Part shown: piece after piece, positions 29,295 through 47,791 of the stretch
Layout of the letters: every line of letters begins with the position of its first letter
Numbering within the stretch: position 1 is the stretch's first letter
Assembly: GCA_963771175.1 (NCBI GenBank)
Contig: CAVYSY010000026.1
Coordinates: 160,001-224,000, forward strand
Origin: an uncultured delta proteobacterium
GTDB lineage: Bacteria > Myxococcota > Myxococcia > Myxococcales > Myxococcaceae
Direction: 5' to 3'
DNA: 64,000 nt
The notes under the pieces: generated by a model
The model's input: the letters and a program-made list of their open reading frames with translations, nothing else
Database searches by the model: none
Told to the model about the DNA's origin: nothing
Translations under genes and position numbers: made by a program

Positions 29295-29367
29295 TCCCCG
29301 ATAGCTCAGCCGGTAGAGCGGGTGACTGTTAATCACTAGGTCCGAGGTTCGAGTCCTCGTCGGGGAG
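29295..29367 (+). tRNA. tRNA-Asn (GTT); CCA not encoded
   Basis: Acceptor stem TCCCCGA/TCGGGGA, D-arm, anticodon GTT 29328-30, T-loop GGTTCGAGTCC. Confidence 0.97.
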
Positions 29368-29369
29368 CA
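29324..29369 (+). repeat. attL core (46 bp)
   Basis: Identical to 39558-39603. Confidence 0.92.
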
Positions 29370-29387
29370 AGATTCACCAGTAATTTC

Positions 29388-29418
29388 AGGGCCTTGGACG
29401 AAAGTTCAAGGCCCTTTT
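29388..29418 (+). terminator. Intrinsic terminator after the tRNA
   Basis: AGGGCCTTGGAC-GAAA-GTTCAAGGCCCT then a T run. Confidence 0.8.
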
Positions 29419-29493
29419 CATTTGCCCTCCCCTGCCCGTGGGCAAAATACGGGCAACCCCCCGGACGTTCTCCCCAATGGAGGGCGCGGGCGC

Positions 29494-30546
29494 ATGGGTG
29501 AGAGCACGGGCAAGAGCCAGGACTACGCGGAGACGTGGGAAGGCGGGTTCATCCGCCACGACTCGAAGGGTCGCAAGGTCTACGTCATCCGCCGGATGAT
29601 CAACGGGCGAAGCTACAAGGTCAGCACGCGGGCGACCACGCTCCGGGCGGCCATGGAGCAGCTCAAGCGGTTCGAGGCTGATCCGGAGCACTACAACCCG
29701 GCGGGCTCGCTCCACGAGCAGCCCATCTACCTGGACGCGCCGCTCGCGGCTGAGTTCCTCGCCTACTCGCGCGACGTGGACAAGAACAGCCCCACCTGGG
29801 TGACGAAGCAGCAGGGCTATCTCGCGTGGTGGGCCGACCAGCTCAAGGGTCGGGACCTGCGGAAGGCCACGCTCCTCGATGACATCCTCCCCGCCCTGGA
29901 GGGAGCAAAGGCCCGGGGTCATCGAATCGCGGTCCTCAAGCGCGTCTACTCCTGGCTGCGCAAGGTGAAGCACGTCCTCTCGGTGGCCGAGGATCCGACC
30001 TTCGGACGGCTCACCGTGCCCCAGGCTCGGCCCGAGCAGTGGAAGCGGATCAAGGTCATTCCCCGGGAGCACTACCTGCTCGCCCACGAACACCTTGCGC
30101 CTCACTGGCGCGACGGGATGGACGTGCAGGCGGGCACCGGCTGGCACGTCTCGGAGCTGGTGCGCTTCGCCAGGATGGGCAGCGTGGAGCCGTACCGGGG
30201 CGAGGCCGAGGGGATCGCGGGCGTGCTGGTGTGCCCGCAGACCAAGAGCGGCGAGCCCTTGCGCACCGCCGTGTCCGCCGAGGTGCTGGAGGCCGGAAAG
30301 CGGCTGCTGGAGCGCGGCTCGTTCAGCTCCGAGAAGTACGGTCTCGCCATCAAGGGAGCCTGCAACGCGGCGGGCATCCCGCCCTTCACCCCGGGACGGT
30401 TCCGGCACTCCGTCGCCACCTGGGCCATCGAGAAGGGAGCGGACCCGGCATCGGTGGCGGCCTTCTTCAATCACAAGAGCCCGGCTACCACGCGAAGCTT
30501 CTACGCGACGCACGCGGTCCCGGCGAAGATTCCTACGTTACGGTGA
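29494..30546 (+). CDS. Tyrosine recombinase/integrase (350 aa)
   Basis: SD GGAGG; TGWHVSEL, TKSG, RFRHSVAT, NHKSPATTRSFY; adjacent to att. Confidence 0.88.
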   Translation: MGESTGKSQDYAETWEGGFIRHDSKGRKVYVIRRMINGRSYKVSTRATTLRAAMEQLKRFEADPEHYNPAGSLHEQPIYLDAPLAAEFLAYSRDVDKNSPTWVTKQQGYLAWWADQLKGRDLRKATLLDDILPALEGAKARGHRIAVLKRVYSWLRKVKHVLSVAEDPTFGRLTVPQARPEQWKRIKVIPREHYLLAHEHLAPHWRDGMDVQAGTGWHVSELVRFARMGSVEPYRGEAEGIAGVLVCPQTKSGEPLRTAVSAEVLEAGKRLLERGSFSSEKYGLAIKGACNAAGIPPFTPGRFRHSVATWAIEKGADPASVAAFFNHKSPATTRSFYATHAVPAKIPTLR

Positions 30547-30607
30547 AACTCGGCCCCGGCATCCCCACCAGTCATGGGGACACCGGGGGCCGGAGAACGA
30601 GTGCTTA

Positions 30608-31042
30608 CTAGCGGGCACGGCGAGCAGCGGTCCTCCGCTTCCTCGTAGAGGAGGTGCCCTGGCTGTCCACTACCTCGTGAGAGGCAGGCGGGCTCAGGCG
30701 CGCCGGGACAGGCCTGGGCCTAGGCTTGGGCTTGGACGTCGAGGACTTCAGCAACGCCGTCACACCGAGACCGAGGAGCACGCCAAGGCCGACGTGGACA
30801 AGCGCGTTGCCAGTGCCCACGACCTTCTGCTGCTCGAAGCCACAACCGTTGCAGCGCATGTAGTCCAGCTCCACGTGAACGTGGTTCACGTTGTCCCCGC
30901 CGCAATGCGGACACACGGGAGGCGCGACGATGTGCTCCGGGAGCGTGTCGAGCCCACGTCGAGCAAGCTCGTTCTGCGCCTTCACCGCGTTCTCGTACGC
31001 CCACTCCGGCACCTTCACCGTCTTGTACTTCATCTTCACCAT
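30608..31042 (-). CDS. Hypothetical: RHH-like N-terminus, Zn ribbon and TM helix
   Basis: YKTVKVPEWAYE; CPHC...CNGC; LVHVGLGVLLGLGVTALL; SD AGGAG. Confidence 0.7.
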   Translation of the reverse strand: MVKMKYKTVKVPEWAYENAVKAQNELARRGLDTLPEHIVAPPVCPHCGGDNVNHVHVELDYMRCNGCGFEQQKVVGTGNALVHVGLGVLLGLGVTALLKSSTSKPKPRPRPVPARLSPPASHEVVDSQGTSSTRKRRTAARRAR

Positions 31043-31235
31043 GGTGCTTCTCCTTTCCACCTCATTCTACCTTTGACTACCTGGGTGTCAAGGGAGCGGG
31101 CAATCGCCTGTAGGCGTGGGCTCAGGCTGTATGCTGCTGGACCCGTAGCGGCAGCGTGGCCATGCATTGCGCTCGTGGCGAGCGCGGCCTGTCCAGCGCA
31201 CGCCGCTCACCGCCAACGAGCAACGAGGAGACGCA

Positions 31236-31718
31236 ATGGGCAAGAAGCAGCTTGAGGCGACGACGACGTGGAAGTGCGATGCCTGTGGCCAAAAGATCAA
31301 GAGCAAGAAGGACGGCTGGGTCGAGTGGCTGCACTTCTTCCCGGGGACCGGCTCAGGCCCAAAAGGGCGCGGCCTCCGCCTCGTGCATAACGGTGGGACG
31401 AGCCCCCGTGGGCGCTCGGGTTGCCAGTACGGACGGAACCCTAAAGAGCTGGTGAAGGATCTCGACCTCGAATCTTTCCTGGGTGCTGATGGGCTCATGC
31501 AGCTTCTTGCACTCATCTACGACCAGGAGGTGCCCACCGAGGAGGTGCTGGAGATGATCAAGCGCCTGCACATCCCGGGTTATGAGGAAGCGCGTCTCCA
31601 CTTCAAGAGCGCCATGGCAGCGGGCGAATACGAACCGAACACCGCACCTGGATTCCCGTTCCAGGACCAGATTGCTGGGGTTCTGGAGTTCGCGCGACGC
31701 CGCCAGTCGGATGAGTAA
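31236..31718 (+). CDS. Hypothetical metal-binding protein
   Basis: SD GAGGAG; WKCDACG...H...C. Confidence 0.7.
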   Translation: MGKKQLEATTTWKCDACGQKIKSKKDGWVEWLHFFPGTGSGPKGRGLRLVHNGGTSPRGRSGCQYGRNPKELVKDLDLESFLGADGLMQLLALIYDQEVPTEEVLEMIKRLHIPGYEEARLHFKSAMAAGEYEPNTAPGFPFQDQIAGVLEFARRRQSDE

Positions 31719-31753
31719 ATACCCGCTCACGGGAAGGCGAGACGGCTCCCTCC

Positions 31754-32029
31754 ATGAACGAAAAGCTGCAACGTCTCCTGGATGATGCGGCACGAGCTGC
31801 TCGCCTGCGGCTGGGGCTCACACAGGCGGAGGTGGCCAAGAAGGTGGGCTTGAAGTCCGGCGTCTACGGGCGGGTCGAGCGCGGGATGATGACGCCCAGC
31901 GTGCCCACGCTGCGACGGATGTGCGAGCCCCTGGGCATCTCCTCGGACGCGCTCCTGTCCCTGGGTGTCCAGGCTCCCGAGGCGACGGCACCGGCCCTCC
32001 GCCCTGGGCCTGTGAGCACCCTGAGCTGA
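31754..32029 (+). CDS. XRE-family HTH regulator
   Basis: RLRLGLTQAEVAKKVGLKSGVYGRVERGMMTPSVPTL. Confidence 0.85.
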   Translation: MNEKLQRLLDDAARAARLRLGLTQAEVAKKVGLKSGVYGRVERGMMTPSVPTLRRMCEPLGISSDALLSLGVQAPEATAPALRPGPVSTLS

Positions 32030-32125
32030 AGTAGGGCTGAGGAGATTCATTCCCCCGGCCAGTAGAGGCCCACCACTGGGTGCTCAGCTCAAAACGGGGC
32101 CATGCGCGTCATCATCGGCAGGGCA

Positions 32126-32350
32126 TCACGCCAGGATCTCGATTCCGACCAGGACTCCATCCTGGTCGAAGTCGAGCACCACATCGGGGCCCGTGTAGGA
32201 ACCCAGGAGTTCGGCCAGCCTGATCGACTTCGACATCTTGCAGGTCTCACCGGGGTGACTCGGGAGGCGCAAATAGGCCACGTCCTGATCGTCCTCGGAG
32301 ACTCGCAGCTCGAAGCGCCCGAGCGTCTTCTTTGAATCCGTCTGCCCCAT
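32126..32350 (-). CDS. DUF2283-like protein, putative immunity for the upstream toxin
   Basis: DVAYLRL...DVVLDFDQDGVLVGIEIL; TAATG coupling to the toxin stop. Confidence 0.8.
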   Translation of the reverse strand: MGQTDSKKTLGRFELRVSEDDQDVAYLRLPSHPGETCKMSKSIRLAELLGSYTGPDVVLDFDQDGVLVGIEILA

Positions 32351-33666
32351 TACGGCCTCCACTGCAAAACGGTCTTCAGCTTCAATACACCATCCCTGAG
32401 CTGATAGACGACCGCACCACCTCGGCCAAAGCCAGGAACGATGACGCGGTCCGCGTGGGCCGTGTCCCGAATGGTTCCGGGCGGAAGCCCCGACTTCTCG
32501 ATCTGTCGGCCGAACTCCTGCAAGGCCGCGCGAGCATCCTGCACGCTTGAGAAACCAGCCCGTTCAACCGCACGTTCCGCCGCGTGCGGCATGTTGCTGT
32601 TGACCACCTTGTCAACGTGGATATCCGACGCGCCTCCTGTCAGCTCGCCCGTGACATGACCGTTGCCTCGGCCATCTCCGGCCGACATCGCGACCGCATT
32701 GGGGGCAAGGGTGATGGTGACGGCCTCGGCACTCACGGCAACCGTCTCTATCTCCCCCACTGCCGCGAGGCGGAGGCCCACCTGCGTCTCCGCCTGCGCC
32801 GCCGCCTGCATCGCACCGGGCAGCGTCGGCACCTTCGCCGCCAACCCCGTCGCCGTGTTGCCGAGCGCCACCGTGGCCAGCATGGCGAACGCACGCGCTG
32901 CGTTGCGGCCCATGACCTTCCCGTACCGCTCCCCGGCCTCGCGCAGCTCATTGAACGTGGTGGCCCGATCCGCCGCGTCCATCAGCCGCTTGAAGCCCAC
33001 GACGAGGCCCCAGAAGGTGTCGACGCCCACGTAGGAGATGAGGGTAGCGGTCATCACCGCCGCGAGACCCTTCGAGACCGTCACGTCGGGAATCGAGATG
33101 AGGAGCATGTACGTGGTCCAGGTCCAGAGCACCGCCGCCACCATGGCGTGGGGGTCGGCCATGTCCTTGAACGCCTCCAGCATCTCGTCGAGCACGGCGC
33201 CCTTGGCGAGGGCCAGGGCCAGCGCGAAACGGCCGTCCCCGTTGACGATGGAGCTCTCCGTCAGCAGGCGGAGACAGTCTCCGGGCCTGCCGGTGCGCTC
33301 GCACCAGCGCAGATAGTCGCGCGTCAACTCCACCTCCGCCGCCGATGGTGCCCCCTCCAGATGTTCGTCCGGCCCGAGCGGAGTGACGCGGCGGCTGCGT
33401 GTCTCGTACGTGTACGAACCACTCCGCGCCTCGACCTCGAACAACTTCCGGGCGGCCTCCTGGGGCCGAGCGGAGGGCCGAACCTCCCAGGCACGCTTCG
33501 CCACGGCCTCCTTGAACTCGTCGCCGTTCAACCTCACCGGCTCGGCACCGGAGCGTGGGGTGAAAACGAGAGTGTCGGCCTGGCCCGTGTCCAGGCGCAC
33601 GACCCGAGAAGCGGTAGCACACCCGGCGAGGAGCACCAGCAGCGCCGCCGTCCAGCCCAGCTTCAT
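32350..33666 (-). CDS. sitA5: SitA5-type polymorphic lipoprotein toxin (438 aa)
   Basis: Lipobox LAGC; SRVVRLDTG, YLRWCERTGRPGDCL, GRNAARAF, AVAM junction, then a variable ~90-aa tip. Confidence 0.8.
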   Translation of the reverse strand: MKLGWTAALLVLLAGCATASRVVRLDTGQADTLVFTPRSGAEPVRLNGDEFKEAVAKRAWEVRPSARPQEAARKLFEVEARSGSYTYETRSRRVTPLGPDEHLEGAPSAAEVELTRDYLRWCERTGRPGDCLRLLTESSIVNGDGRFALALALAKGAVLDEMLEAFKDMADPHAMVAAVLWTWTTYMLLISIPDVTVSKGLAAVMTATLISYVGVDTFWGLVVGFKRLMDAADRATTFNELREAGERYGKVMGRNAARAFAMLATVALGNTATGLAAKVPTLPGAMQAAAQAETQVGLRLAAVGEIETVAVSAEAVTITLAPNAVAMSAGDGRGNGHVTGELTGGASDIHVDKVVNSNMPHAAERAVERAGFSSVQDARAALQEFGRQIEKSGLPPGTIRDTAHADRVIVPGFGRGGAVVYQLRDGVLKLKTVLQWRP

Positions 33667-33889
33667 GGGAATTCCCCCTGATGATGGCCACCCCCTGATG
33701 GGTAGCCAGTCCAACTGTGTACCCTATTGGTCTGACAACTCCCGGTGTTCGCCGCTCTCGGCGGCGTCATTCGAGGGGCTCATCAAGAGCGCCCGTGCTT
33801 CGGCATAAGGACCTTGGCGGTCATCCCCGCTGACGTCCTGGCTGGTCGGCCAGTGCGTCTTCATCCAATCCACCCGAGGAGGAATGCAG

Positions 33890-34260
33890 ATGGAACACGT
33901 CAGCCTCTCCGCTGAGCTGGGGGAAATTCGTTACGCCATCGAGGGCGCCCACTGGATCGCGGACAGCGTCGCCATGGGCGCGGTGCCCGACCCGGATCGG
34001 GTGCACAGCGCGCCCGTCATCATCAGCGCCATCCTGCTGCTGGTGGAGACCAGGCTGCATCAGCTCGGCCGTGTGCTCCGAGGCGAGGAGAACCCGGCGC
34101 ACCTGTTGACGCCGCACAACGTCACCGCCGGGGAGAACGCGGACAGGGATGACGTGGTTCTGCGGCCTTGGGACTGGAGCGCCGCGCCGAGGCCGTCTCC
34201 GTCCGAGAAGAAGGAGACCGAGCAGCCCCGTCCAGTAGCGGGAACCGAGTCCCCCGTCCG
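33890..34260 (+). CDS. Element-conserved hypothetical divergent from sitA5 (3' end uncertain)
   Basis: SD GAGGAGG; first ~93 aa nearly identical to the product of 43124-43403. Confidence 0.6.
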
Positions 34261-34385
34261 TTGGAGGAGAGCCCTCCCGCCCAGCCCGGCACGCAGGGGG
34301 CGCAACCGCCCCCCACCGGGGAGCCGGGCTGATCGGCTGCGGCCTGTATCGTGCCTGGAGTACCAGGGGAAGGGAGGTGAAGACG

Positions 34386-34499
34386 ATGCTGGGTGCCGTG
34401 AAGAAGCTGGCCGCCTCACCAATCACCCTCCGGGTGGCAGCGGCCATTTTGATCGGACTGGCCGAGCACCTGCGCGAGGTGACGCGGCACGGGCGGTGA
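34386..34499 (+). CDS. 37-aa hydrophobic peptide
   Basis: Strong SD GGAGGTGA; MLGAVKKLAASPITLRVAAAILIGLAEHLREVTRHGR. Confidence 0.45.
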   Translation: MLGAVKKLAASPITLRVAAAILIGLAEHLREVTRHGR

Positions 34500-35005
34500 A
34501 GATGCCCGGAGTTGAAGCACGGTCCCCGTCGCACCAACACCAGCGTGATGCTCCCGGTCTTGGCCGGGTGGTGTGGCGGGGGCCGGTTCGTCTCCACGGG
34601 CTCCGATCCCGGTGGCACCAGCTCCGGTGCAGTTCCACCGCCGGAGGTCCCCGGTCACTTCTCCCGGTGGTCCTCCAGATTTTTAAGTATCAGGGGCGCC
34701 CTACCCCCTCGTGCGCGAGGAGCTGGAGGGCGAACACTGGGTACGGCCATCAGTAACCCCTGGGCGAAGATCGCCAGGGACCGCGTACCGGGGAGCAGCC
34801 CGCTGGAGAGTCCCCCCGAAAAATCTTGAGAGCCCCCATCCCCCCAGGGGCGCGAAGAAGACCAGGGGGCTTACAGGTGGACCTGCGACAAGGGAACCCC
34901 AGTCCCCCCATCCCCGGGGGTGCTCACCCAGGTTGGATAGGGCTACCGATTAGCGAGTCAGGGCGAAGAGGGCCCGGGAGAGGCGTCAAAACGAACCCGA
35001 GGGCG

Positions 35006-35872
35006 TCACTTCACGAGCCGCAGGCGTCACGCGCAGCTCCTTGGCCTCGGCCGGGTTCTCGGCCTTCACGGTGGCCACCTGGGCGCGGAGCTGGTCGAGG
35101 AGCCCGAGCTGCCGCTGCATGGCGGTCTCCAGCAGCTTGCGGTGGCGCTCCAGCTTCCGCAGGTCCGCGTCTTCCAGCAGCAGCACCTCGGCGGCCAGCC
35201 GTTCGCGCACCGGCGCGAGCGCGCCCTCGTCCTCGGCCAGCTTCGCGGAGAGGGCGCCCTTCACACCTGGGCCGCGTTTCCCAGGTCTCGGTAGACGGCC
35301 GGGGGGATGCGCTCCGTCCTTGAGTTCTCCTGGGCATGTGTTGAGCGCGAAGGCCAGGGGCTCCACCACGACCATCGGCAGGCCCGGCACCTCGCGCAGC
35401 ACGGTCACGGTCTTCTCCACGCCGGTGAGGAAGGCGTCGGTCTGCTCCGCGTCCTTCGGCGGTGGGGAGGCATCCACGAACTCGACGAAGGCGCTCACCG
35501 CCAGCGCCCGGCGGGTGAGGTCGTAGGTCTTGAACTCGTCCGTCTTCTCCAGCTCCTCCTCCAGCCGGGCCCGGATCCGGCCGTTCTCCACCCGGCTCAG
35601 CCGCTCCAGCTTCCAGGCCGTGTCCGCGAGCTGCGCCACGATGGTGGCCTCGGGCAGGGTGGTGGGCGAAGCTGGAGAACCACGAGTCCACGTGCGCCTC
35701 GTACTCGGCGGCATCCTCTCCGGGAAGGAGCAGATGCGTGGCGCTCAACCCGTGGCGGAGGGAATTGAGCGAGGATGTAACCTTCCCCTCGGGGGTCTTC
35801 GGGCCGTTCGAGCGGGCCCCATTGAGCGCGCTGGTGAGCGGCCTGTCGGGCGGAGCGGACGGAGGGGTTCAT
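35006..35872 (-). pseudogene. Helical protein with an NGARSNGPKTPEGK..S..N..RHG motif (possible TerS-like); several frameshifts
   Basis: High-GC3 pieces in successive frames join from ATG 35872 to LRLVK-stop at 35006. Confidence 0.55.
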
Positions 35873-36069
35873 ACGGGAATTCTCCGGTCTGGCTCGCACA
35901 CTCGTGGGAAGAGGAACGTATAGCCTCAGACGCGGATGGCCCCATGACGGTGCTACTGCACCAATGAGGAAGGCGAGCGAGGGCTGGGCTCCCTGCTCGT
36001 CACTTCCATTGGGCACAGAGAGCCAATCCGACGCCTCTTCGGATTAAGGGTCGAGGGGTCTATCCGGCT

Positions 36070-36496
36070 CTTTGTATGTTGTAAATCCAGGGTCTCTTCT
36101 GGAGCGAGGCCAGGACTAGTTCTTCAAGGGCTTCGTTCCGAAGAACTCCTGGTATCTTGTAGTTTCTGCTCCCTCTCCGAAATCGAGAGAAAGGACCTTC
36201 AGTCCTTTCTCTCTTTCTCTATTCTCCTTATATGATGCAATTACAAGATATAAAGAGATTGAAGAATGAATGAACGAGGACTTGGAATAGAGTCCTCGTT
36301 CTTGGACGAAAGAGAGTAGGGGAATTACAAGATACAATGGCTGCTTGAACCCCTCGCCCTTGAATCCACCGAGGCATTTGGAGGGGTGAAGAAGGCACCT
36401 GGATTACAACATTCAAGATGTTCCCGGAGAGGCGCCCTTGATCTCCACCAAGACCTCGCCGGAAGAAGAAGACGCCCGGAATTACAAGATGCAAAG
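36070..36496. repeat. Six 19-bp iteron-like repeats (2 inverted, 4 direct) with two hairpins; putative replication origin
   Basis: Consensus GGAATTACAAGATACAAAG at 36070(-), 36148(-), 36237, 36321, 36400, 36478; AT-rich; inverted repeats 36185-36213 and 36272-36301. Confidence 0.75.
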
Positions 36497-36504
36497 AGTC
36501 CGAG

Positions 36505-37552
36505 TTAGCTGGTGCGTACGGGCTTCTTGTTCCTGAGTTGGAGCCCATAGGCGTCCCTAGCCGCGTCCTCCTCGGTGTACCGACCCGTATCCGGCACCCA
36601 CCTCAACTTGTAAGTGGCTGCCCTCGTGCCAGCCGAGTGGCCCTCGTACAGCTCGAAGACGTGGGAGCCGAAGAATTTCCGTAAGAACTCTGGAGTGCCC
36701 GGAGGCTCCAAGGATGGCCTCTTCGTTCGTTCCGGCGCCGCGCAGCCAATCCGATCTCCACCGAACCAAGTAGCCCTGGGCCTGAGCATTCCATTGCATG
36801 TAGGCGGCCATTCGTTGGAGGCACCTGAAGAGATAGAAGGCGACTATGGGGCCATGCGTCTGGCTTACCCGATGGACCCACTCCATGCTGCTGGGCCCCA
36901 TCTTGGCGAATAGAACTTCGGGATGCTCGTTGAGTAGGTTATTCCTGAAGCCGGCGAGCTGTCCCCTGAGCCCTCGAAGGGTATTACCATCCGTGACGCC
37001 GCTCGCTTGAGCCCATACCTGGAGGAAACTGAAATAATCAGGCACTCCATCTTCGGGGTGGTACTCGACCGCCTTACGTAGCCTCTCGCTTCGCATCAGC
37101 ACCCCGGCCGAGAGATAGAACGGCTTTCCTTTCGGCCATGGAGGACTCCCCAGATGACGAGGGTATCCTCTTCGTTGATACTCGGAGGGGTGGCCCCCTC
37201 GGCAGCTTCGACCAGGTTCGTTCGGAGCTTGTAGAGCGGGGTGCCCCTGCATGGATGCCGAGTGGCTGGGCCATCAACCAGTTCCACTCCGCGTCACCCA
37301 CCTGTCGAGTGAGCCCGAACCGGGTGATGACGCCTCCTGCCAGTACGTGGAGGGGGCGTAGCGACAGGCCAGCACCGAGCTCCTGCACGCTCATCACTCC
37401 TTGGAGCCTTAGGTCCACGTCACCCAGGAACGGAAAGACGTCCAGCACGCTCCCGGTGGGGAGCGGAGTCCTGGGAGGCAGTCACGCTGGTAGTAGGGGA
37501 TTTTCTTGCGTCGGCTGACGCTGGGGATGTCGCATGTCTGTACGTCGCTCAT
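36505..37552 (-). pseudogene. Frameshifted putative replication initiator
   Basis: Overlapping minus-strand fragments from ATG 37552 to stop 36505; ends next to the iterons; C-terminal GHSAGTRAATYKLRW resembles a wHTH wing. Function is inferred. Confidence 0.4.
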
Positions 37553-37744
37553 GGCTCTGCTCCTTCTTGTGCACGCTGCAACGGGAGCTGGTGGCCCTGC
37601 CCGTGCACTTCTCAATGAATCAACCCGGCGAGCAGGACAGGCACTAATCCAAGGTTGCTCTGCCGTGGACCGTCCTGCCTGACGGGCCCTCGGTAGTGGG
37701 GTCCAGCGGGCCGTCCTAGTGTTTCCCTGTTGAGGAGATGAGCG

Positions 37745-38448
37745 ATGGCGAAGCTCACGGATGAATCGACCATGGAGTCCCTGCCACCAGCCGGGAGCCT
37801 GGAGCCTCCGGGAGGGGAGCCCGGGACGGGCAGCGAGCGTCCCAAACCCCTTCCCCCCATTCCCCTCGGGTACTCGTGCGCGCCACCGCCACCGCCGCTT
37901 CCGGAGTACCTCCGTCCTCCGCTTCCCGTGAGGCGGGGGCGTCCCGATGGATGGGTGTGCAGACGATGCACGGAGTGGTGGGAGTGGCACCCGTACCGGC
38001 CTCCGACAGAGCAGGAACTCGACACGCCCTGCGTTGAATGCCGCAAGGCGATGGAGCCCGAGGAGCGCGCGGTGGAGGTGAACCGGCACCTGCTGGCGAG
38101 GCTCAGCGCGGGATTGGGCTGCCTGGCCCTGCCGACGCCCACTATGTCTCCGGTCCCAGGCCGGCGGCAGCGCACAGACCAGCTGCCGAGCTGTTGTCGA
38201 AGAAGTCGGCTGCGCGTCTCCTGGGCGTGGACCGGGCAACGACCTTGGAGGAGTGGATTGCCACTGGCCGTATCAAGGTGGTGGACCTCGACGGCCGAGT
38301 CCGCATCCCACTGGCGGAGGTCGAGCGCATCTTGAACGAGGGCATCCCGGCTCAAGAGGTGCGCTCCAAGCCCCATCGCTCAGCGAGAGCGGCTGCGTCT
38401 GTGCCATCCGAATCTCCAGGGAATGCGATTCGAAAGTTGAAGGTCTAG
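37745..38448 (+). CDS. Zn-finger plus excisionase-like (HTH_17/MerR-like) protein; frameshift near 38160
   Basis: CRRC...CVEC, then LLSKKSAARLLGVDRATTLEEWIATGRIKVV...RIP. Confidence 0.65.
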
Positions 38449-38497
38449 AGTGAGTTATACGCGATCTTCTGGCTACTATCGGTCGATGGGGAGGCTA

Positions 38498-39442
38498 ATG
38501 AGTTCCGACATGAAGGCGGTCTCAATTATTCAGAACGCTCTACCAGGGCTGGAGATTGAACTTCAGCGGGTGCACGAAGCACTACACGAGGTGGAAGAGT
38601 ACGAGTTCAACCGCATTCACGGGAGAGAGCTCGGTCTCATCCAGAAGAAGACTTGGCTAGAGAGATCTTCACGTCCAGAATGAAAAGGCTCTCGCGGCTT
38701 GTGCTCATATGCCTTGATGCTGCTGGCATGGTGGCGACGCGCGATGACTTCCGGGAAACATGGGCCAAATTCACCCTAACGGAAACCGAGTACGTCCACG
38801 AACTCGATGTGCTGCATAGCGAGCCATCCATCTACCTGGGAGACATGATTGACGGCCTACGCCTCATCGCAACTAGAGGCGAAAGCCCAACCGAAAAGGT
38901 GGATCTTCAGCGACTTCAGGATATGCTGCAAGCAACGCCCACGCTAATGCACAGGAGGAATATCGTTCCCCAGCGGGAGCACGACATCCAGTTGGTTATG
39001 GCTGATTATCTGGAGGCATGTTTCCCACGAGAGTTCGTGCCCTCTCCAGGTGTCCCCGGCTTCATCAAGAACTTCAAAGCCGATGCCGGGGATACGGCAT
39101 CTCAAAGCAGCGGTGGAATTCAAGTTCGCCTCTACTCCCACCGAATTGAAGCAAGCAGTATCTGGAATCTTCGAGGACACAGCGGGGTACAAGGGATCCC
39201 TCGATTGGACCCGCTTCTACTCGGTTATTTATATGACTGAACCGTTCGAGTCGCCTGCTCGCTTCCACGCGGATATGAGCCGAGCGGGGGCTCTGAACTG
39301 GACCGTGATCCCGGTTAGTGGAGCGGGCGAAAAGCAGCGGAGGTTCCGGAAAGGGAAGGGTAAGGTAGAGCCAGTCGAGCCGAAGAAGGCCGAGCCAGTC
39401 GAGCAGAAGAAGGCCGAGCCAAGCGAGCCGAAGAAGGAGTAA
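38498..39442 (+). CDS. PD-(D/E)XK nuclease-domain protein (frameshifts near 38640 and 39090)
   Basis: EHDIQ...KADAGIRHLKAAVEFK...IFED; low GC; three C-terminal EPxExKK repeats. Confidence 0.6.
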
Positions 39443-39557
39443 CTCACCGCTGTTAGGAAGCCGGTCATGGGCAAATTACGGGCAACCACCTCTCCCGTTT
39501 TCGACGGTTCCAACCCCCTCTCCAGGGGAGGAGTGGCGGTGCCCCCGGCCTTTTCAC

Positions 39558-39603
39558 GACTGTTAATCACTAGGTCCGAGGTTCGAGTCCTCGTCGGGGA
39601 GCA
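39558..39603 (+). repeat. attR core: duplicated 3' part of tRNA-Asn
   Basis: GACTGTTAATCACTAGGTCCGAGGTTCGAGTCCTCGTCGGGGAGCA identical to 29324-29369. Confidence 0.92.
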
Positions 39604-39607
39604 CAAG

Positions 39608-39644
39608 AAGGGCGTCAGACGAAAGTCTGGCGCCCTTTTCTTTT
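39608..39644 (+). terminator. Intrinsic terminator after attR
   Basis: AAGGGCGTCAGAC-GAAA-GTCTGGCGCCCTT then TTCTTTT. Confidence 0.8.
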
Positions 39645-39688
39645 GCCCTCTCTGCCCCATCGGCACAACACGGGCAACCCCCTTCGAG

Positions 39689-40308
39689 CGCGGTCCTCAA
39701 GCGCGTCTACTCCTGGTTGCGCAAGGTGAAGCACGTCCTCTCGGTGGCCGAGGACCCGACCTTCGAGCGGCTCACCGTGCCCCAGGCCCGGCCCGAGCAG
39801 TGGAAGCGGACCAAGGTGATTCCCCGGGAGCACTACCTGCTCGCCCGCGAGCACCTCGCGCCTCACTGGCGCGACGGGATGGACGTGCAAGCGGGCACCG
39901 GCTGGCACGTCTCGGGAGCTGGTGCGCTTCGCCAGGATGGGCAGCGTGGAGCCATACCGGGGCGAGGCCGAGGGGATCGCGGGCGTGCTGGTGTGTCCGC
40001 AGACCAAGAGCGGCGAGCCCTTGCGCACTGCCGTGTCCGCCGAGGTGCAGGAGGCCGGGAAGCGGCTGCTGGAGCGCGGCTCGTTCAGCTTCGAGAAGTA
40101 CGGTCTGGCCATCAAGGGAGCCTGCAACGCGGCGGGCATCCCGGCCTTCACGCCGGGACGGTTCCGGCACTCCGTCGCCACCTGGGCCATCGAGAAGGGA
40201 GCGGACCCGGCTTCCGTGGCGGCCTTCCTCAACCACAAGAGCCCGACCACCACGCGGCGCTTCTATGCGACGCACGCTGTCCCGGTGAAGATCCCCACCC
40301 TGGCATAG
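39689..40308 (+). pseudogene. 5'-deleted, frameshifted integrase paralog
   Basis: Near-identical to about 29928-30540; N-terminal ~145 codons missing; extra G near 39915. Confidence 0.88.
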
Positions 40309-40503
40309 GACACCGAGAGCGACGGTTTCCTAACCCTTGAAGGGCCCCTCGGTCCTCGGGTGGAGCCGGGTAAACCCCCGAGATTACTGGACGCTGGCGT
40401 TCATCCACGTTCACCCGCGACCGACCGATTACGTACAGATTACGTACTGGTCGAACCGATTCCGGGACTTTCGTCCCGAGTCGTGGCAACCCAGGTTTCA
40501 GGG

Positions 40504-40839
40504 ATGAGTTCCAACAACAGCACGGTCAGTCCAGAACTCCAGCACTACATGCGCTGCACTGCATGTAAGCGGCGCGTAAGCGAGCACGCTCCTGGTAAGT
40601 GCCTCTACCAGGAAACGGCTCTCGCTCCGTTGACACACAACAATTTTTGTTGCGACACCTTCAAGTCCATTGATTCAGAACTGAGCGCTGATCTGCTTGG
40701 TCGGAAGGAAGACGAGCAGCTCTACGTCAAGCGTCACAATGAACTCGTCGCACTGTGCCCGCATCCACCAAATCGAGTGAGCACGGGCGAATACGGCCTG
40801 GAGTTCTGTACCTGCTGTAACTCCGTCATCGAGAGCTAG
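40504..40839 (+). CDS. Cys-rich hypothetical protein
   Basis: CTAC...H...C, CPHPP...CTCC; lower GC. Confidence 0.55.
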   Translation: MSSNNSTVSPELQHYMRCTACKRRVSEHAPGKCLYQETALAPLTHNNFCCDTFKSIDSELSADLLGRKEDEQLYVKRHNELVALCPHPPNRVSTGEYGLEFCTCCNSVIES

Positions 40840-40848
40840 ACGGGCTCG

Positions 40849-40900
40849 ATGAACGAGAAGCTGCAACGCACTCCAAGGGAGGCGGCTCGGGCTGCTCGCC
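40849..40900 (+). pseudogene. 5' remnant of the XRE HTH gene
   Basis: MNEKLQRTPREAARAAR matches the start of 31754-32029, then is deleted. Confidence 0.6.
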
Positions 40901-40918
40901 GTCATCGTCGGCAGGGCA

Positions 40919-41143
40919 TCACGCCAGGATCTCGATTCCGACCAGGACTCCATCCTGGTCGAAGTCGAGCACCACATCGGGACCCGTGTACGAGCCCATG
41001 AGTTCGGCCAGCTTGATCGACTTCGACATCTTGCAGGTCTCTCCGGGGTGACTCGGGAGGCGCAAATAGGCGACGTCCTGATCGTCCTCAGAGACTTGCA
41101 GCTCGAAGCGCCCGAGCTTCTTCTTGGAATCCGCCTGCCCCAT
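40919..41143 (-). CDS. DUF2283-like protein, orphan immunity copy
   Basis: Only a few residues differ from 32126-32350. Confidence 0.8.
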   Translation of the reverse strand: MGQADSKKKLGRFELQVSEDDQDVAYLRLPSHPGETCKMSKSIKLAELMGSYTGPDVVLDFDQDGVLVGIEILA

Positions 41144-41163
41144 TACGGCCTCCAGGCCATGAA

Positions 41164-41598
41164 CTACGGCGTTTCCCCCAGCTCACGGAGCTTGCCGCGT
41201 GCAATCTCGTTCAGCGGCTCCTTCTGGAGGATGCGACGGTAGAGCCGCACTTTCTCGGCCGGCTCACGTGCCAGCGCCGCCTCCAAGGTGAGAACCTGCA
41301 CGTGCTCCGGGTCCAACGCCTGGGCCATGCCGAGCTGCCGACTCGCTTCGCCGTCTTCTCCCATGAGGAAATAGATGAATCCGAATTCAACCCGTGCGAG
41401 CACATCCTTGGGCATCAGCTCCAAGAGTCGTTCATAGGTGGGCACCGATACCTCGGGCTCAGCGTAGAACTTTCCTGCAAGCACCGGGAGTACAGCGGGA
41501 TCGGAAACGTGACGGAGCGCATCGCGGAAGGCCCGCTCTGCCTCTGCTCCTCCTGTCTCCAGCACTCGCTTCGCCAGATATTCGAAATGGTCCGTCAT
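41164..41598 (-). CDS. TPR-like putative immunity protein for toxin 2
   Basis: ATGA overlap with the toxin stop; YERLLELMPKD, ALDPEH, ILQKEPLN TPR-like repeats. Confidence 0.7.
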   Translation of the reverse strand: MTDHFEYLAKRVLETGGAEAERAFRDALRHVSDPAVLPVLAGKFYAEPEVSVPTYERLLELMPKDVLARVEFGFIYFLMGEDGEASRQLGMAQALDPEHVQVLTLEAALAREPAEKVRLYRRILQKEPLNEIARGKLRELGETP

Positions 41599-42900
41599 GG
41601 GGGAATGAAAGCGGTGTTGATGGTGATTCGACCGTCCGTGTACTTGAACCAGCGAATGGTCAGGTTCGCAATCCCCCCGAACCTATCATTGATCTTGAGG
41701 GTGCTCTCGAAGATGGACCCTTTGGGGGTTGTGGCCAATGCGCTCACCTTCCCATCGAGCTGGCGGACAGCGTCGATGAGGAACTGTCGTTGCTCTGGCC
41801 ACGTTGGAGCCAGGCGGTCCAGGTTGTGCTTGGGAACGTCTACGTGCGCATCTTTGACCGAGATGTCATCACCGCTCGCCGGGAGCGGAGCGCTCGTGGC
41901 ACCCGACCCCTGAGCCGACATCGCCACGGCGCCCGGAGTAAGTGCGATGGTGACGGCCTCGGCACTCACGGCAACCGTCTCGACCTCCCCCACTGCCGCG
42001 AGGCGGAGGCCCACCTGCGTCTCCGCCTGCGCCGCCGCCTGCATCGCACCGGGCAGCGTCGGCACCTTCGCCGCTAATCCCGTCGCCGTGTTGCCGAGCA
42101 CCACCGTGGCCAGCATGGCGAACGCACGCGCTGCGTTGCGCCCCATGACCTTCCCGTACCGCTCCCCGGCCCCGCGCAGCTCGTTGAACGTGGCGGCCCG
42201 ATCCACCTCGTCCATCAGCCGCTTGAAGCCCACGACGAGGCCCCAGAAGGTGTCGACGCCCACGTAGGAGATGAGGGTGGCGGTCATCACCGCCGCGAGA
42301 CCCTTCGAGACCGTCACGTCGGGAATCGGAGATGAGGAGCATGTACGTGGTCCAGGTCCAGAGAACCGCCGCCACCATGGCGTGGGGGTCGGCCATGTCC
42401 TTGAACGCCTCCAGCATCTCGTCGAGCACGGCGCCCTTGGCAAGGGCCAGGGCCAGGGCGAAACGGCCGTCCCCGTTGACGATGGGGCTCTCCGTCAGCA
42501 GGCGGAGACAGTCTCCGGGCCTGCCGGTGCGCTCGCACCAGCGCAGATAGTCGCGCGTCAACTCCACCTCCGCCGCCGGTGGTGCCCCCTCCAGATGTTC
42601 GTCCGGCCCGAGCGGAGTGACGCGGCGGCTGTGTGTCTCGTACGTGTACGAACCACTCCGCGCCTCGACCTCGAACAACTTCCGGGCGGCCTCCTGGGGC
42701 CGAGCGGAGGGCCGAATCTCCCAGGCACGCTTCGCCACGGCCTCCTTGAACTCGTCGCCGTTCAACTTCACCGGCTCGGCACCGGAGCGTGGGGTGAAAA
42801 CGAGAGTGTCGGCCTGGCCCGTGTCCAGGCGCACGACCCGAGAAGCGGTAGCACACCCGGCGAGGAGCACCAGCAGCGCCGCCGTCCAGCCCAGCTTCAT
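41595..42900 (-). CDS. sitA5: Second SitA5-type toxin with a different C-terminal tip; 1-nt insertion near 42328
   Basis: N-terminal region nearly identical to toxin 1 up to AVAMSA; tip HVDVPKHNLDRL...ITINTAFIPP. Confidence 0.78.
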
Positions 42901-43123
42901 GGGAATTCCCCCTGATGATGGCCACTCCCTGATTGGTAGCCATTCCAACTGTGTACCCTATTGGTCTGACAACGCCCGGTGTCCGCCGCTCTCGGCGGCG
43001 TCAATCGAGGGGCTCATCAAGAGCGCCCGTGCTTCGGCATAAGGACCTTGGCGGTCATCCCCGCTGACGTCCTGGCTGGTTGGCCAGTTCGTCTTCATCC
43101 AACCCACCCGAGGAGGAATCCAG

Positions 43124-43403
43124 ATGGAACACGTCAGCCTCTCCGCCGAGTTGGGGGAGATTCGTTATGCCATCGAGGGCGCCCACTGGATCGCGGACAG
43201 CGTCGCCATGGGCGCGGTGCCCGACCCGGAGCGGACGCACAGCGCGCCCGTCATCATCAGCGCCATCCTGCTGCTGGTGGAGACCAGGCTGCATCAACTC
43301 GGCCGTGTACTTCGAGGCGAGGAGAATCCGGGGCACTTGTTGACGCCGCACAACGCCACCACCCAGGAGGAGGCGGACAAGGATGACGTGGTTCTGCGGG
43401 CCT
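43124..43403 (+). pseudogene. Truncated copy of the element-conserved hypothetical
   Basis: Matches 33890-34170, then similarity ends abruptly. Confidence 0.6.
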
Positions 43404-43412
43404 GGGTCCAGG

Positions 43413-43736
43413 TCACTTCGGTGCGAGCACCTTCGCGCGGTTCGCCGCGCTCATCGCGTTTGGCCACCCTGCGTAGAACGCGAGGTGCGTGATCATCTCG
43501 ACCAGCTCCTCCTGCGTGACGCCGTTCGCGAGGGCCTTCGGGAAGTGGAAGTCCATCTGCTCGGTCTTGCCCATCGCGATGAGGGCCGCGCAGGTGATGA
43601 GACTCCGGTCGCGCTTGCTGAGCTGCGGTCGCTCCCAGACATCGGCAAAGAGGACTTCATCGGTGAGCTCCACGAGCTTCGGCGCGAAGTCCCCGAGTGC
43701 CTGCTGGGCAGCGGTGGGTTCGGACTTGGTACTCAT
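43413..43736 (-). CDS. Carboxymuconolactone decarboxylase/AhpD family protein
   Basis: LFADVWERPQLSKRDRSLIT, HLAFYAGWP. Confidence 0.9.
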   Translation of the reverse strand: MSTKSEPTAAQQALGDFAPKLVELTDEVLFADVWERPQLSKRDRSLITCAALIAMGKTEQMDFHFPKALANGVTQEELVEMITHLAFYAGWPNAMSAANRAKVLAPK

Positions 43737-43782
43737 GGTGTCTGCTCCTTCTCGGGCGGCAGGTTGCACATCTGACGCGGCT

Positions 43783-44292
43783 TCACGGCGCCTCCTCGGC
43801 CAGCTCGAAGCGGACCACAAAGCCGCCGCGGGCTCCCGCCAGCTTCTCGACCCCCGACTCGATGTGGCCCAGCTTGACGAGCCCGCTCGAGTATCCGAAG
43901 TCGCGATAGAAGATCGCCAGGTTTCCCCACGGGGCGTAGTACGTGAGATCGCCGATCTCTGGGTCCACGCCCGGCGGCGTGCCGCTGGTCGAAAGCCGCC
44001 TCGGCAAGTCGCTCACCTTCTCCGTCCCCGCGTAGTCGCGCAGCGTGAGGTTGAGCGGCAGCAGCGAGACGAAGTCACGCGTCGCGGCGTTGTCGTCCAA
44101 CGTGGCGGTCAAGACCGTGTCTTCCGTGATCAGTCGGAGCTTCATGGTGGCAACCTGTCGGGGTGAACTGTCGGTATCGGTCGAAGGCGACGGTGGGCTC
44201 TCGGCATCCGCCGCACGAGACGGCCCAGTACAGTCGCAGCTCGCCAGGGCGAGGACAGCGAGCACGAGCTTGATGGTCGAACGCCTACGCAT
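43783..44292 (-). CDS. Cyclophilin-like fold protein with N-terminal signal/lipobox
   Basis: RDFVSLLPL...YAGTEK...GDLTYYAPWGNLAIFY. Confidence 0.85.
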   Translation of the reverse strand: MRRRSTIKLVLAVLALASCDCTGPSRAADAESPPSPSTDTDSSPRQVATMKLRLITEDTVLTATLDDNAATRDFVSLLPLNLTLRDYAGTEKVSDLPRRLSTSGTPPGVDPEIGDLTYYAPWGNLAIFYRDFGYSSGLVKLGHIESGVEKLAGARGGFVVRFELAEEAP

Positions 44293-44309
44293 CGGCTCCT
44301 CCCAAGCAC

Positions 44310-45327: not shown

Positions 45328-45399
45328 GGCAGTTCCTTTCGTCGTGGCTCGTGGAAGAAACATGCGCCTCCGCGGCCGCACGGAGAAGGCCCGGGTGCG

Positions 45400-45428
45400 G
45401 GATGGGCTGTTAAGCCAGGATTGACAAT
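45400..45428. promoter_or_regulatory. Putative LysR operator 1
   Basis: TGTTAA-N7-TTGACA dyad; repeated at 46478-46506. Confidence 0.6.
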
Positions 45429-45466
45429 CGTCACTGGGGCGGGGATGTAGATCGCAGGCCCAGCCC

Positions 45467-46396: not shown

Positions 46397-46477
46397 GGCC
46401 ATCTCCGGCCTCGCCGTCGAGGTCGTCGAAACCGGGGCGATTTCAACGCGCCGACCCGCCGGCCGACGCCGTCGCGC

Positions 46478-46506
46478 ACTGTCAAGCTCCGCTTAACAGC
46501 CCATCC
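46478..46506. promoter_or_regulatory. Putative LysR operator 2
   Basis: TGTCAA-N7-TTAACAGCCCATCC; 16 nt identical to the reverse complement of operator 1. Confidence 0.6.
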
Positions 46507-46613
46507 ATCAACCGACGCCTAGTTCGTTGACGAGAGCGAGCGCATGTTCCTGTTGCAGCGGTCAGGAGGGCAACAGCGACTGCGGCGATGACGTCACGAC
46601 AAGGAGATCAACG

Positions 46614-47729: not shown

Positions 47730-47791
47730 ACAGAAGCGCGCACCCCGGGAATGCGTTGAGCGCGTCGGCTGCGCTGAGTGGAGGAAAGACC

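Follow-up and report, generated by a model that had tools for sequence, protein, structure and literature searches.

The tRNA-Asn gene of an uncultured delta proteobacterium of the Myxococcaceae (GCA_963771175.1, contig CAVYSY010000026.1, positions 160,001-224,000 of the forward strand; these 64,000 nucleotides are called the window) is followed by a 10,234-bp segment, called E1. The question raised by this locus is what kind of element E1 is, whether it is intact, and how it could replicate and be retained.

E1 is bounded by exact repeats at a tRNA-Asn gene

E1 is delimited by exact 46-bp direct repeats (29324-29369 and 39558-39603), which had been predicted from the DNA and proved to be the only two matches in the whole window at up to three mismatches; none of 100 shuffles contained two or more. 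The left copy makes up the 3' part of tRNA-Asn, and the tRNA is present at this copy only. The following features mark the boundaries.

29295..29368, plus strand: tRNA-Asn (GTT), the integration target, regenerated by E1 (ARAGORN; Rfam RF00005, 69.2 bits)
29324..29369, plus strand: attL core, exact 46-bp repeat
29388..29423, plus strand: E1-borne hairpin and T-run following the regenerated tRNA (77% similarity to the native counterpart at 39609-39682)
29440..29458, plus strand: arm-type 19-mer GGGCAAAATACGGGCAACC, candidate integrase arm site, recurring at 39469-39487 and, in the second unit, at 39661-39679
39558..39603, plus strand: attR core (displaced tRNA-Asn 3' fragment)
39604..43406, plus strand: older decayed tandem unit

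E1 has the features of a tRNA-integrating genomic island, with a tyrosine integrase gene (PF00589, phrog_1) at one end, adjoining the 46-bp core identical to the tRNA end; the tRNA gene is intact on the left, and an identical 3' fragment lies displaced on the right. The arm-type 19-mer, located just inside each end of E1, had three matches at up to three mismatches against none expected, and related 9-mers were found near both ends of two relatives (L036 and L037). A 'tRNA-Glu' reported by ARAGORN at 39520-39602 is a chimera of the end of E1 and the displaced tRNA-Asn fragment, and Rfam detected no tRNA there at E<=0.1. None of the public sequencing runs contained E1, the best share of words being 0.17.

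The unit beyond attR was missed by the original prediction. It consists of the native tRNA terminator, an integrase without the initial ~470 bp, a DUF2283 gene left as an orphan (40919-41143; a 95% copy of the immunity candidate of E1 spans 40900-41154), a TPR gene (41167-41598), another sitA5 gene (41598-42948) that is in two frames and differs in its C-terminal domain, and the 5' part of the p148 gene; no right-hand att copy survives in it. The sequence after attR is the native post-tRNA terminator of genome G015, where only 4.2 kb separate tRNA-Asn from the conserved flank and neither an integrase nor a backbone match occurs. E1, which lies nearest the tRNA, is therefore the newest unit. 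Other genomes, too, have stacks of integrase remnants at tRNA-Asn. We consider it likely that the segment is a copy, intact or not, of a compact site-specific integrative element in the tRNA-Asn 3' end, which arrived after an older relative. E1 carries in both the tRNA 3' end and a terminator hairpin of its own.

Gene content of E1

The genes of E1, together with one repeat array, are as follows.

29422..30546, plus strand: tyrosine integrase, 374-aa ORF (PF00589, E 7.3e-10; phrog_1 over residues 45-364)
30608..31060, minus strand: zinc-ribbon 150-aa protein with a hydrophobic segment, cargo (sub-threshold zinc-ribbon matches only)
31167..31718, plus strand: 183-aa protein without a family match (GC3 0.76)
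31754..32029, plus strand: XRE-type HTH regulator (HTH_3, 1.1e-12)
32126..32362, minus strand: SitI-type immunity candidate, DUF2283 (PF10049, 1.3e-9)
32350..33714, minus strand: SitA5 lipoprotein toxin (NCBIfam NF050093, 370 bits against a cut-off of 160)
33884..34324, plus strand: p148, backbone protein of ~147 aa (the ORF extends to 34756 in this assembly)
34986..35900, minus strand: p242-family backbone protein, placed by alignment with relatives
36072..36494, no strand: TTACAAnAT half-site array (two inverted, AT-rich palindrome, three direct)
36505..37552, minus strand: BbC, ~346-aa candidate DNA-binding initiator or regulator, read through seven single-base indels
37745..38448, plus strand: Xis/AlpA-like protein with a zinc-ribbon (CxxC...CxxC) and HTH_17 (ORF 38038-38448)
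38450..38683, plus strand: 77-aa ORF, from the frame plot
38653..39442, plus strand: PD-(D/E)XK-like protein, in two frames in E1 (intact homologues P0159 and P0160)

The predicted integrase, XRE regulator, xis-like gene and SitA5/immunity pair were all recovered by family matches, the last as genes. Relatives of the integrase align from about residue 10-35 of the ORF; in locus L031 the integrase copy is 95% identical and a 71% homologue of the XRE regulator occupies the same position. The Xis-like gene also matches phrog_66 (excisionase/regulator) at 1.7e-9. The protein is encoded by a single 228-229-aa ORF in L031 and L038 and has 173-221 aa, by start choice, in L037; the E1 copy carries a net +2 nt near 38172. 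The TerS-like gene that had been thought possible found no support: its sole signal, phrog_57 at 6.6e-5, falls on this HTH_17 stretch, where the excisionase match is the stronger. The 77-aa ORF had no relatives by tblastn in the loci examined. The proposed nuclease cargo stood only in part, as PD-(D/E)XK-like similarity, since P0159 and P0160 score 22 and 18.5 bits against REase_DpnII-MboI, short of its cut-off of 27; the gene has a C-terminal 24-nt tandem repeat at 39362-39437.

The SitA5 protein is composed of an escort domain and an unclassified C-terminal domain of ~110 aa with no Pfam match, and its translation shows a lipoprotein signal bearing a lipobox cysteine (MKLGWTAALLVLLAGC, LLAGC after MKLGW). 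The DUF2283 ORF lies directly downstream in the same operon and overlaps the SitA5 stop, as expected of a candidate immunity gene.

For excision, the integrase would act with the zinc-ribbon-HTH_17 protein as a directionality factor or activator, and in the circle the integrase and Xis-like genes would adjoin across attP, as in relatives at tRNA-Met.

A family with a fixed backbone and a swappable slot

Sequence comparison places E1 in a family that spans Myxococcaceae genera, which the original prediction missed. Integrase matches at E<=1e-30 came from 46 of 201 genomes, and the targets of 20 integrase loci were tRNA-Phe (8), tRNA-Asn (7), tRNA-Thr (1) and tRNA-Lys (1), with no tRNA detected at three. 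In four of the 17 tRNA-bearing loci, 43-50-bp repeats bound elements of 5.9-13.8 kb, so the modules are not confined to larger prophages. As judged by alignment, the family shares a fixed backbone, made up of p148, a divergent p242-family protein, one swappable slot, the Xis-like gene and the integrase, to which variable cargo is added. Two genomes from different genera share one backbone at 97.3% identity over 3,978 nt, compared with 90.9% at their rpoB loci.

The p148 protein is 85-95% identical to ORFs of 145-147 aa in L081, L089 and L031, the alignments covering residues 1-146 or 1-122, and all of its 40 homologues are annotated 'hypothetical'. The p242 family occurs in 39 of 201 genomes (14,690 representative clusters) and is ~281-290 aa long in relatives, while the frame in E1 is interrupted at either end as well as in the middle; its model is all-helical (pLDDT 93). 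That p242 is single-copy in the source genome counts against our reading of E1.

The slot is occupied by BbC and the array in E1, L081, L085, L090, L093 and L097-L103, by an HNH_3 protein in L036, L038, L083 and L084, by a PF03175 PolB-like protein in L088, L089 and L092, and by a family A polymerase (PolA) in L086. An integrase follows in each of the polymerase-bearing loci, and tRNA-Pro lies beyond it in L086, L088 and L092; no tRNA was found within locus L089. The PolB-like proteins have DxxSLYP, but their motif C is non-canonical (STDA) and KTRG is present in none of the three, so they may not be active replicases. Cargo across the family consists of conflict genes: SitA5 in E1, and AHH with Imm11, PAAR-like toxins, a PDC-S35 TIR defence gene (316 bits) and Mza-like genes in relatives.

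BbC and the half-site array

The predicted repeat array is real: TTACAAGAT had eight matches in the window at up to one mismatch against 1.09 expected, seven of them within 36076-36613, and no shuffle of 100 reached eight. An AT-rich palindrome (about 36225-36262) forms its center, the three direct half-sites are spaced 78-89 bp apart, and two inward-facing terminator-like hairpins flank its core (36185-36213, plus strand; 36301-36272, minus strand). The same architecture is found in L097-L102, and the hairpins are conserved among relatives in structure while differing in sequence. The array is tied to BbC and was found only where BbC occurs: five to seven half-sites adjoin p242 in all three BbC-bearing loci tested, and 14 other loci, among them L090 with its BbC-like gene on the other strand, have at most one half-site by p242 and none in 13.

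BbC itself, with 331 of 343 residues identical to the intact P0004 and eight homologues, was not confirmed as rep-like, since its gene matches nothing in Pfam, PHROG, PADLOC or PDB and shows no homology to any Rep. Its model (pLDDT 87) has a winged-helix-like C-terminal part and no significant match to a Rep, primase or other known fold (best Foldseek E 0.2); the best VIA Z was 6.2, for a helical stretch, and the winged-helix-like part reached Z 5.0 to CooA, with no Rep listed. Like iteron plasmid replicons (RepA/pi/RepE), E1 has a candidate DNA-binding protein gene adjoining an array of putative sites and an AT-rich stretch, although BbC, winged-helix-like in its C-terminal part, has no sequence or clear fold match. 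Classical iterons are tandem and 17-22 bp long, whereas the sites of E1 are 9-bp half-sites ~80 bp apart with mirror symmetry, a spacing that counts against our reading.

We tentatively propose, at somewhat less than an even chance, that the backbone slot is a replication module, in which BbC of E1 would act on half-sites set symmetrically about the palindrome so that the excised circle replicates, the two hairpins insulating the palindrome from transcription. The same symmetric half-sites around a palindrome would suit cooperative looping or a partition complex, and the resemblance of BbC to a winged-helix DNA binder and the position of the array upstream of p242 are also consistent with a switch in which a repressor and its operator control the divergent backbone genes, or with a partition site resembling a centromere. 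We regard this as rather improbable: DNA polymerase-like genes occupy the same slot in sister elements, inward-facing terminator-like hairpins that shield the AT-rich core are ill-suited to a promoter, and no ParA-type ATPase was found in E1 or the related loci.

Integrative island, remnant or phage satellite

Frame breaks in E1 are confined to its right half, with seven in BbC, at least one in the Xis-like gene and several in p242, and none in the left-half integrase and sitA5 genes. This distribution counts against our reading. It would fit an immobile remnant, in which the backbone is dead and the segment survives solely as a toxin-immunity island whose integrase gene is still open, and the plainly decayed adjoining unit and the recurrent integrase-remnant stacks at tRNA-Asn point the same way. 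However, the same assembly splits rpoB into three frame pieces and rpoC into four; single-base indels in it, which the original prediction did not take into account, are thus errors of assembly that fall about once per 1.5 kb in these two genes, so the many frameshifts of E1 do not in themselves demonstrate decay, although the backbone may have decayed in part. The seven indels of BbC against 12 substitutions over 343 residues, relative to the intact allele, are also a ratio unlike natural decay, and the att repeats are identical across 46 bp. A remnant is unlikely. As an alternative, a helper myxophage could induce, replicate and package E1 as a satellite, the uncharacterized backbone proteins being hijacking functions. 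PICIs/SaPIs and P4-like satellites share with E1 its size (6-14 kb here, about 10-15 kb for PICIs), tRNA integration, an integrase with an AlpA/Xis-type HTH_17 gene, a hotspot of defense or conflict cargo near int and a lack of virion genes; E1 also has no means of transfer of its own, and the family has spread across genera. The parallel with PICIs/SaPIs drawn in the original prediction nevertheless failed at the level of modules. No primase-helicase (pri-rep) was found among 119 ORFs with Pfam or 46 ORFs with PHROGs and NCBIfam, and no TerS, capsid, portal, head-size (cpm, ppi) or cos-related family, or other phage-derived module, among the same ORFs with Pfam and PHROGs, the lone TerS signal reflecting a shared HTH fold. 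The same families were absent from 22 sister-backbone proteins, and the P4 alpha primase and sid/psu/delta were not found in E1 by Pfam or PHROGs. The integrase, p242 and BbC had no tblastn match in 50,697 phage records, a pattern scan of IMG/VR found no p242, and no paper in the literature searched paired 'Myxococcota' with 'phage satellite'. We therefore consider a phage satellite very unlikely.

The expected lack of virion and conjugation genes was confirmed, with no such family among 119 ORFs (Pfam) or 46 ORFs (PHROGs). A search of E1 and of 101 ORFs from 14 related loci likewise found none of the relaxase, coupling protein and type IV secretion genes that distinguish ICEs and IMEs. E1 is probably a self-replicating integrative island. 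Its transfer between cells by transduction, helper-dependent packaging or natural transformation is possible.

Relationship to known elements

As far as the available descriptions of tRNA-integrating islands with tandem accretion (Islander; ICE/CIME arrays) go, E1 shares with them a tyrosine integrase, a tRNA 3'-end target, a regenerated tRNA and a displaced fragment as boundaries, and a newest unit beside the tRNA with an older unit decayed, whereas the conserved p148/p242 backbone with its swappable slot belongs to the E1 family and not to the general class. Pipolins are described in the main text of two papers (Redrejo-Rodriguez 2017, Mateo-Caceres 2024; PMC11551731, PMC5695915) as short piPolB-encoding elements that lie between direct repeats at tRNA genes and encode a tyrosine recombinase and DNA-binding proteins of the HTH/Zn-finger type, with a core that is small and defence cargo that can be exchanged; 'Myxococc' is absent from the main text of both. 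E1 resembles them in its repeats at a tRNA gene, tyrosine recombinase, HTH/Zn-finger protein and exchangeable cargo, and its sister elements carry PolB-like genes in the slot, but E1 has no polymerase by Pfam and the sister proteins lack the piPolB-defining KTRG (KH-x8-KTRG).

Mx-alpha and other mobile DNA of Myxococcus carry sitAI cassettes, are arranged in tandem and, in the available text of PMC5562445, are proposed to be retained through sibling killing. E1 likewise carries a SitA toxin/immunity cassette in a tandem arrangement; Mx-alpha units, however, are prophage-like and ~100 kb, whereas E1 is 10 kb, without phage genes and with a SitA5-family toxin.

Implications

Because SitA5/SitI cargo may poison kin lacking E1 through TraA/TraB-dependent outer-membrane exchange, by analogy with published SitA biology, retention of E1 would be favored. 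This idea is not new: the same available text already presents killing of element-free siblings as a means of mobile-DNA retention (PMC5562445), and sitAI loci are described as often located on mobile DNA, where they may help its retention (PMC5562445, PMC8546572). The family of compact, shared-backbone islands to which E1 belongs is undescribed, in agreement with the original prediction, and no account of it was found in the literature searched. More speculatively, and with considerable doubt, Myxococcaceae may harbor undescribed compact self-replicating integrative elements, cousins of pipolins, whose replication module would be freely exchanged (PolB-like, PolA, HNH protein, or the new initiator BbC with a mirror-symmetric half-site origin), whose p148 and p242 would serve transfer or helper exploitation, and which may shuttle kin-discrimination toxins and anti-phage genes between genera.

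Boundaries and gene content of E1

E1, the SitA5-carrying element at tRNA-Asn, is a real, bounded integrative element that belongs to a conserved family, one that spreads horizontally and carries conflict genes. The exact 46-bp att repeats that the original prediction had placed at this tRNA gene were present, and their start-to-start distance gives a length of 10,234 bp. The att sequence has two matches in the whole window at up to three mismatches, a number reached in 0 of 100 shuffles. Genes were called by third-position GC; Pfam was scanned with every ORF of 75 aa or more from 29.3 to 51 kb (119 in all), and NCBIfam and PHROGs with a subset of 46. The following features were identified, and the five genes among them are firm calls.

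Features of E1 (window coordinates)
29295-29368: tRNA-Asn(GTT), called by ARAGORN
29324-29369 and 39558-39603: exact 46-bp att repeats, the first starting inside tRNA-Asn
29422-30546: tyrosine integrase (int), firm call
31754-32029: XRE regulator, firm call
32350-33714, minus strand: SitA5 toxin, score 370 bits (cut-off 160), lipobox in the translation
overlapping the stop of the SitA5 toxin: DUF2283 gene, likely immunity gene
38038-38448: HTH_17 protein, best phage-library match an excisionase/regulator

The integrase, XRE regulator and SitA5/immunity pair that had been predicted were thereby recovered, as was the xis-like gene, in the form of the HTH_17 protein. Nothing resembling capsid, terminase, portal, relaxase or secretion genes was found among the 119 ORFs searched with Pfam or the 46 searched with NCBIfam and PHROGs, which agrees with the claimed lack of virion and conjugation genes. 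The proposed TerS-like gene fell away, since it rests on phrog_57 (6.6e-5), a weaker match of an HTH stretch that scores best as an excisionase/regulator. The proposed nuclease cargo (38653-39442) was weakly supported: two intact homologues of this PD-(D/E)XK-like gene match the DpnII/MboI restriction-enzyme fold, at a level below threshold. Its product ends in KAEPVEPKK-like units, which come from three 24-nt tandem repeats at 39362-39437.

The C-terminal domain of SitA5 matched no Pfam family at E ≤ 0.01, and the idea of a DUF4258-like toxin paired with DUF2283 was borne out by no search. A second tRNA call by ARAGORN (39520-39602) is chimeric, joining the end of E1 to a tRNA fragment; Rfam places a tRNA at the left site only. 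The stretch 34265-34830, after the gene for the conserved protein p148, is 89–97% alike in translation to loci L081 and L089, where it lies in other frames.

Frame breaks and assembly quality

Frame changes are many in the right half of E1, and none lies in int or sitA5. The Xis-like gene has a net +2 nt in E1; it is a single ORF of 228–229 aa in the related loci L031 and L038, and of 173–221 aa in L037 according to which start is taken. The gene for p242, the other conserved backbone protein, has frame breaks at its two ends and in between, and seven single-base shifts are needed to read through the gene for BbC, a protein of about 346 aa (36505-37552, minus strand), of which 331 of 343 residues are identical to an intact 346-aa protein of another assembly. 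In the host assembly, G000 (completeness 81.7% by marker genes), the frame of rpoB is also broken up into three pieces and that of rpoC into four (G000:C25:92475-100856), and a 768-aa flanking gene is broken relative to its counterpart in a relative. Because rpoB and rpoC are split in the same assembly, the single-base indels are largely assembly errors, so that the gene breaks in E1 say nothing on decay, and we dropped them as proof of it. Some real decay of the backbone may have occurred, because the breaks are denser there than in int and sitA5. Frequent single-base indel errors mean that pseudogene calls anywhere in this assembly need care.

A family of elements with a conserved backbone and varied cargo

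Of 201 genomes from the bacterial family of the host, 46 carry relatives of the integrase (E ≤ 1e-30); for the host genus the figure is 14 of 17. Among 20 loci, the tRNA gene beside the integrase was Phe in eight, Asn in seven, and Thr and Lys in one each, with none detected in three; in four of the 17 tRNA-bearing loci, repeats of 43–50 bp delimit an element, with lengths of 5.9, 7.6 (L036), 9.3 (L037) and 13.8 kb. Searches by tblastn with the E1 proteins revealed a common gene order of int, cargo, p148, p242 (on the opposite strand), one variable gene and a zinc-ribbon-HTH_17 gene. The same backbone module was found in 14 further loci at tRNA-Met, Pro or Asp, accompanied by different integrases (about 31% identical or unrelated), and in these the Xis-like gene adjoins int, as the two would in the circular form of E1. 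DUF932 genes (phrog_1221) lie between p148 and p242 in L082, L086, L093 and L094.

The cargo after int varies by copy. It includes a TIR protein that matches the candidate defence system PDC-S35 (316 bits) with an RNase H, DUF3800 and GNAT genes, an Mza-like cluster with Dcm and Vsr and, elsewhere, AHH+Imm11 and PAAR-like toxins. In the closest relative the PDC-S35 match (PADLOC) is full-length, at L031:9185-9928 on the minus strand, and is followed in the cargo position by the RNase H gene. Of about 18 loci with p242, 5 have a sitA5 gene on the cargo side. The host genome has 41 matches to the SitA5-escort model, 19 of them above the cut-off, against one copy of p242; most of its SitA5 loci are therefore not on E1-type elements.

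The p242 gene is present in 39 of the 201 genomes, and its protein family spans 14,690 representative clusters at E ≤ 0.001; no Pfam model covers it. The predicted structure is confident (pLDDT 93) and all-helical. Its fold had no informative match, the best Foldseek hit (E 0.018) being a designed or cryo-EM helical protein; its profile returned helical-bundle noise only from PDB sequences, and an atlas search yielded 30 clusters, none of them named. An N-terminal motif, GP.T..GK..S..NA..HGL, is conserved (for example at L089:11649-12491). The family could merit a domain definition of its own. p242 is widespread, and the context of the E1 family links it to mobile elements. Homologues of p148 number 40; every one is annotated as hypothetical, and the source names are Archangium, Corallococcus, Myxococcus and Cystobacter.

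A swappable slot with a candidate replication module

The slot between p242 and the recombination genes of E1 is occupied by BbC, preceded by an AT-richer spacer of 790 bp. The spacer begins with two inverted TTACAAnAT half-sites, continues with an AT-rich palindrome between two hairpins and closes with three direct half-sites, at intervals of 78–89 bp; both hairpins score as terminators and face inward. This architecture recurs beside BbC in genomes of four genera, where the hairpin sequences differ and the stems are kept. Half-sites were clustered beside p242 in all three BbC-bearing loci tested, and the other 14 loci had at most one each; these 14 include L090, whose BbC-like gene is on the other strand. 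No exact 9-mer arrays were found in relatives lacking BbC.

Elsewhere in the family the slot is taken by an HNH_3 protein (four loci), a PolB-like protein (three loci) or a family A polymerase (one locus).

Polymerase genes in the slot of other members
L088:13794-16235, L089:13811-16093 and L092:13384-15765: divergent PolB-like proteins (PF03175), 761–814 aa, inside sister elements
L086:15033-16964: family A DNA polymerase (phrog_17, 3.7e-47), next to an SNF2/PLD helicase cargo gene

Mainly because polymerase-like and HNH genes hold the equivalent position, we tentatively read BbC and its array as a replication module that could comprise a candidate origin and its initiator. The eight homologues of BbC are all unnamed. 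Its model is confident (pLDDT 87) and has a winged-helix-like C-terminal part (Z 5.0), and structural searches gave nothing significant (best Foldseek PDB match Cre recombinase, E 0.2, TM 0.18; best BFVD match E 0.045), with weak matches only in the atlas.

The PolB-like proteins keep DxxSLYP, but STDA stands where motif C is expected, and KTRG, the motif of piPolB, is missing; they had no PHROG match and no PDB sequence match. They also carry a K..N...GK motif and a C-terminal HTH, and their loci have tRNA-Pro at L088 and L092, with no tRNA found within L089. E1 resembles pipolins in platform design, but without the defining polymerase. Myxococc* does not appear in the main text of two pipolin papers (PMC11551731, PMC5695915).

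Layers of island DNA at tRNA-Asn

Directly 3' of attR, the segment 39604-43406 repeats parts of E1 at 94–96% identity. This second unit comprises an integrase without its first ~470 bp, a DUF2283 gene copy that is an orphan, a TPR gene, another sitA5 with a C-terminal domain that differs from that of E1 and likewise matches no Pfam family at E ≤ 0.01, and the first part of p148. A third att copy was sought for it at up to three mismatches and by blastn-short, and none was found. In G015, a congeneric genome, the terminator hairpin after tRNA-Asn is the one that lies after attR here. The conserved right flank (from window position 50459) starts 4.2 kb on, with no integrase or backbone match between. 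Since G015 has the native terminator and 4.2 kb only, about 21 kb here is island DNA, of which E1 is the newest layer. An Rfam match to ctRNA_p42d at 39606-39646 (37.3 bits against 50) was rejected as a plasmid RNA, being the native tRNA terminator hairpin.

The segment of ~7 kb that separates the second, decayed unit from the conserved flank (43407-50458) is missing at the corresponding site in G015. It has a lower GC of 0.64–0.70 and contains CMD, cyclophilin-like/ADH (frame-split), LysR, alpha/beta hydrolase, SDR and histidine kinase genes and SUKH fragments; it is probably older island DNA. Integrase remnants are stacked at tRNA-Asn in other genomes, together with the same SUKH-gene fragments as at 48.7–49.1 kb. 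These SUKH (SMI1_KNR4) immunity-gene fragments (48733-49134) lie just after the remnants in five other genomes (L032, L033, L043, L049 and L050).

Mobility and the nature of the element

A backbone stretch of 3,978 nt (BbC, array and p242) is 97.3% identical across two genera, and the rpoB loci of the same genomes are 90.9% identical. Between E1 and L031, in another genus, the sitA5 region is 93–96% identical and the backbone 81–82%, a difference that marks the two as mosaic.

The original prediction of a satellite or integrative replicon holds as regards an integrative element. That E1 is also a phage satellite is improbable, and nothing speaks positively for it: tblastn with the integrase, p242 and BbC against 50,697 phage records gave no match, a pattern scan of IMG/VR found no p242, and no paper was found that names both Myxococcota and phage satellite. 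In plasmids p242 had one match, weak and partial, and the 20 public sequencing runs that share words with E1 share 0.10–0.17 of them, none reaching half. For the integrative element, retention driven by the toxin is plausible, an idea already published in general form.

Significance

Dozens of sitAI loci per genome underlie the social identity of myxobacteria, with 25–80 given in passages of PMC5562445 and PMC8546572, which also place these loci often on mobile DNA, prophage-like or other, and credit them with a possible part in its retention; plasmid and prophage carriers are listed in PMC10047993. We found no description of the E1 family in the literature searched. Plasmids in myxobacteria are reported from two organisms only, according to one paper, and the candidate origin, if working, might serve as a replicon tool in these bacteria. 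Published work places such loci often on mobile DNA and goes no further; E1 is a concrete, small and bounded vehicle for sitAI, and its family offers a searchable backbone, evidence of spread across genera and a candidate origin with its initiator.
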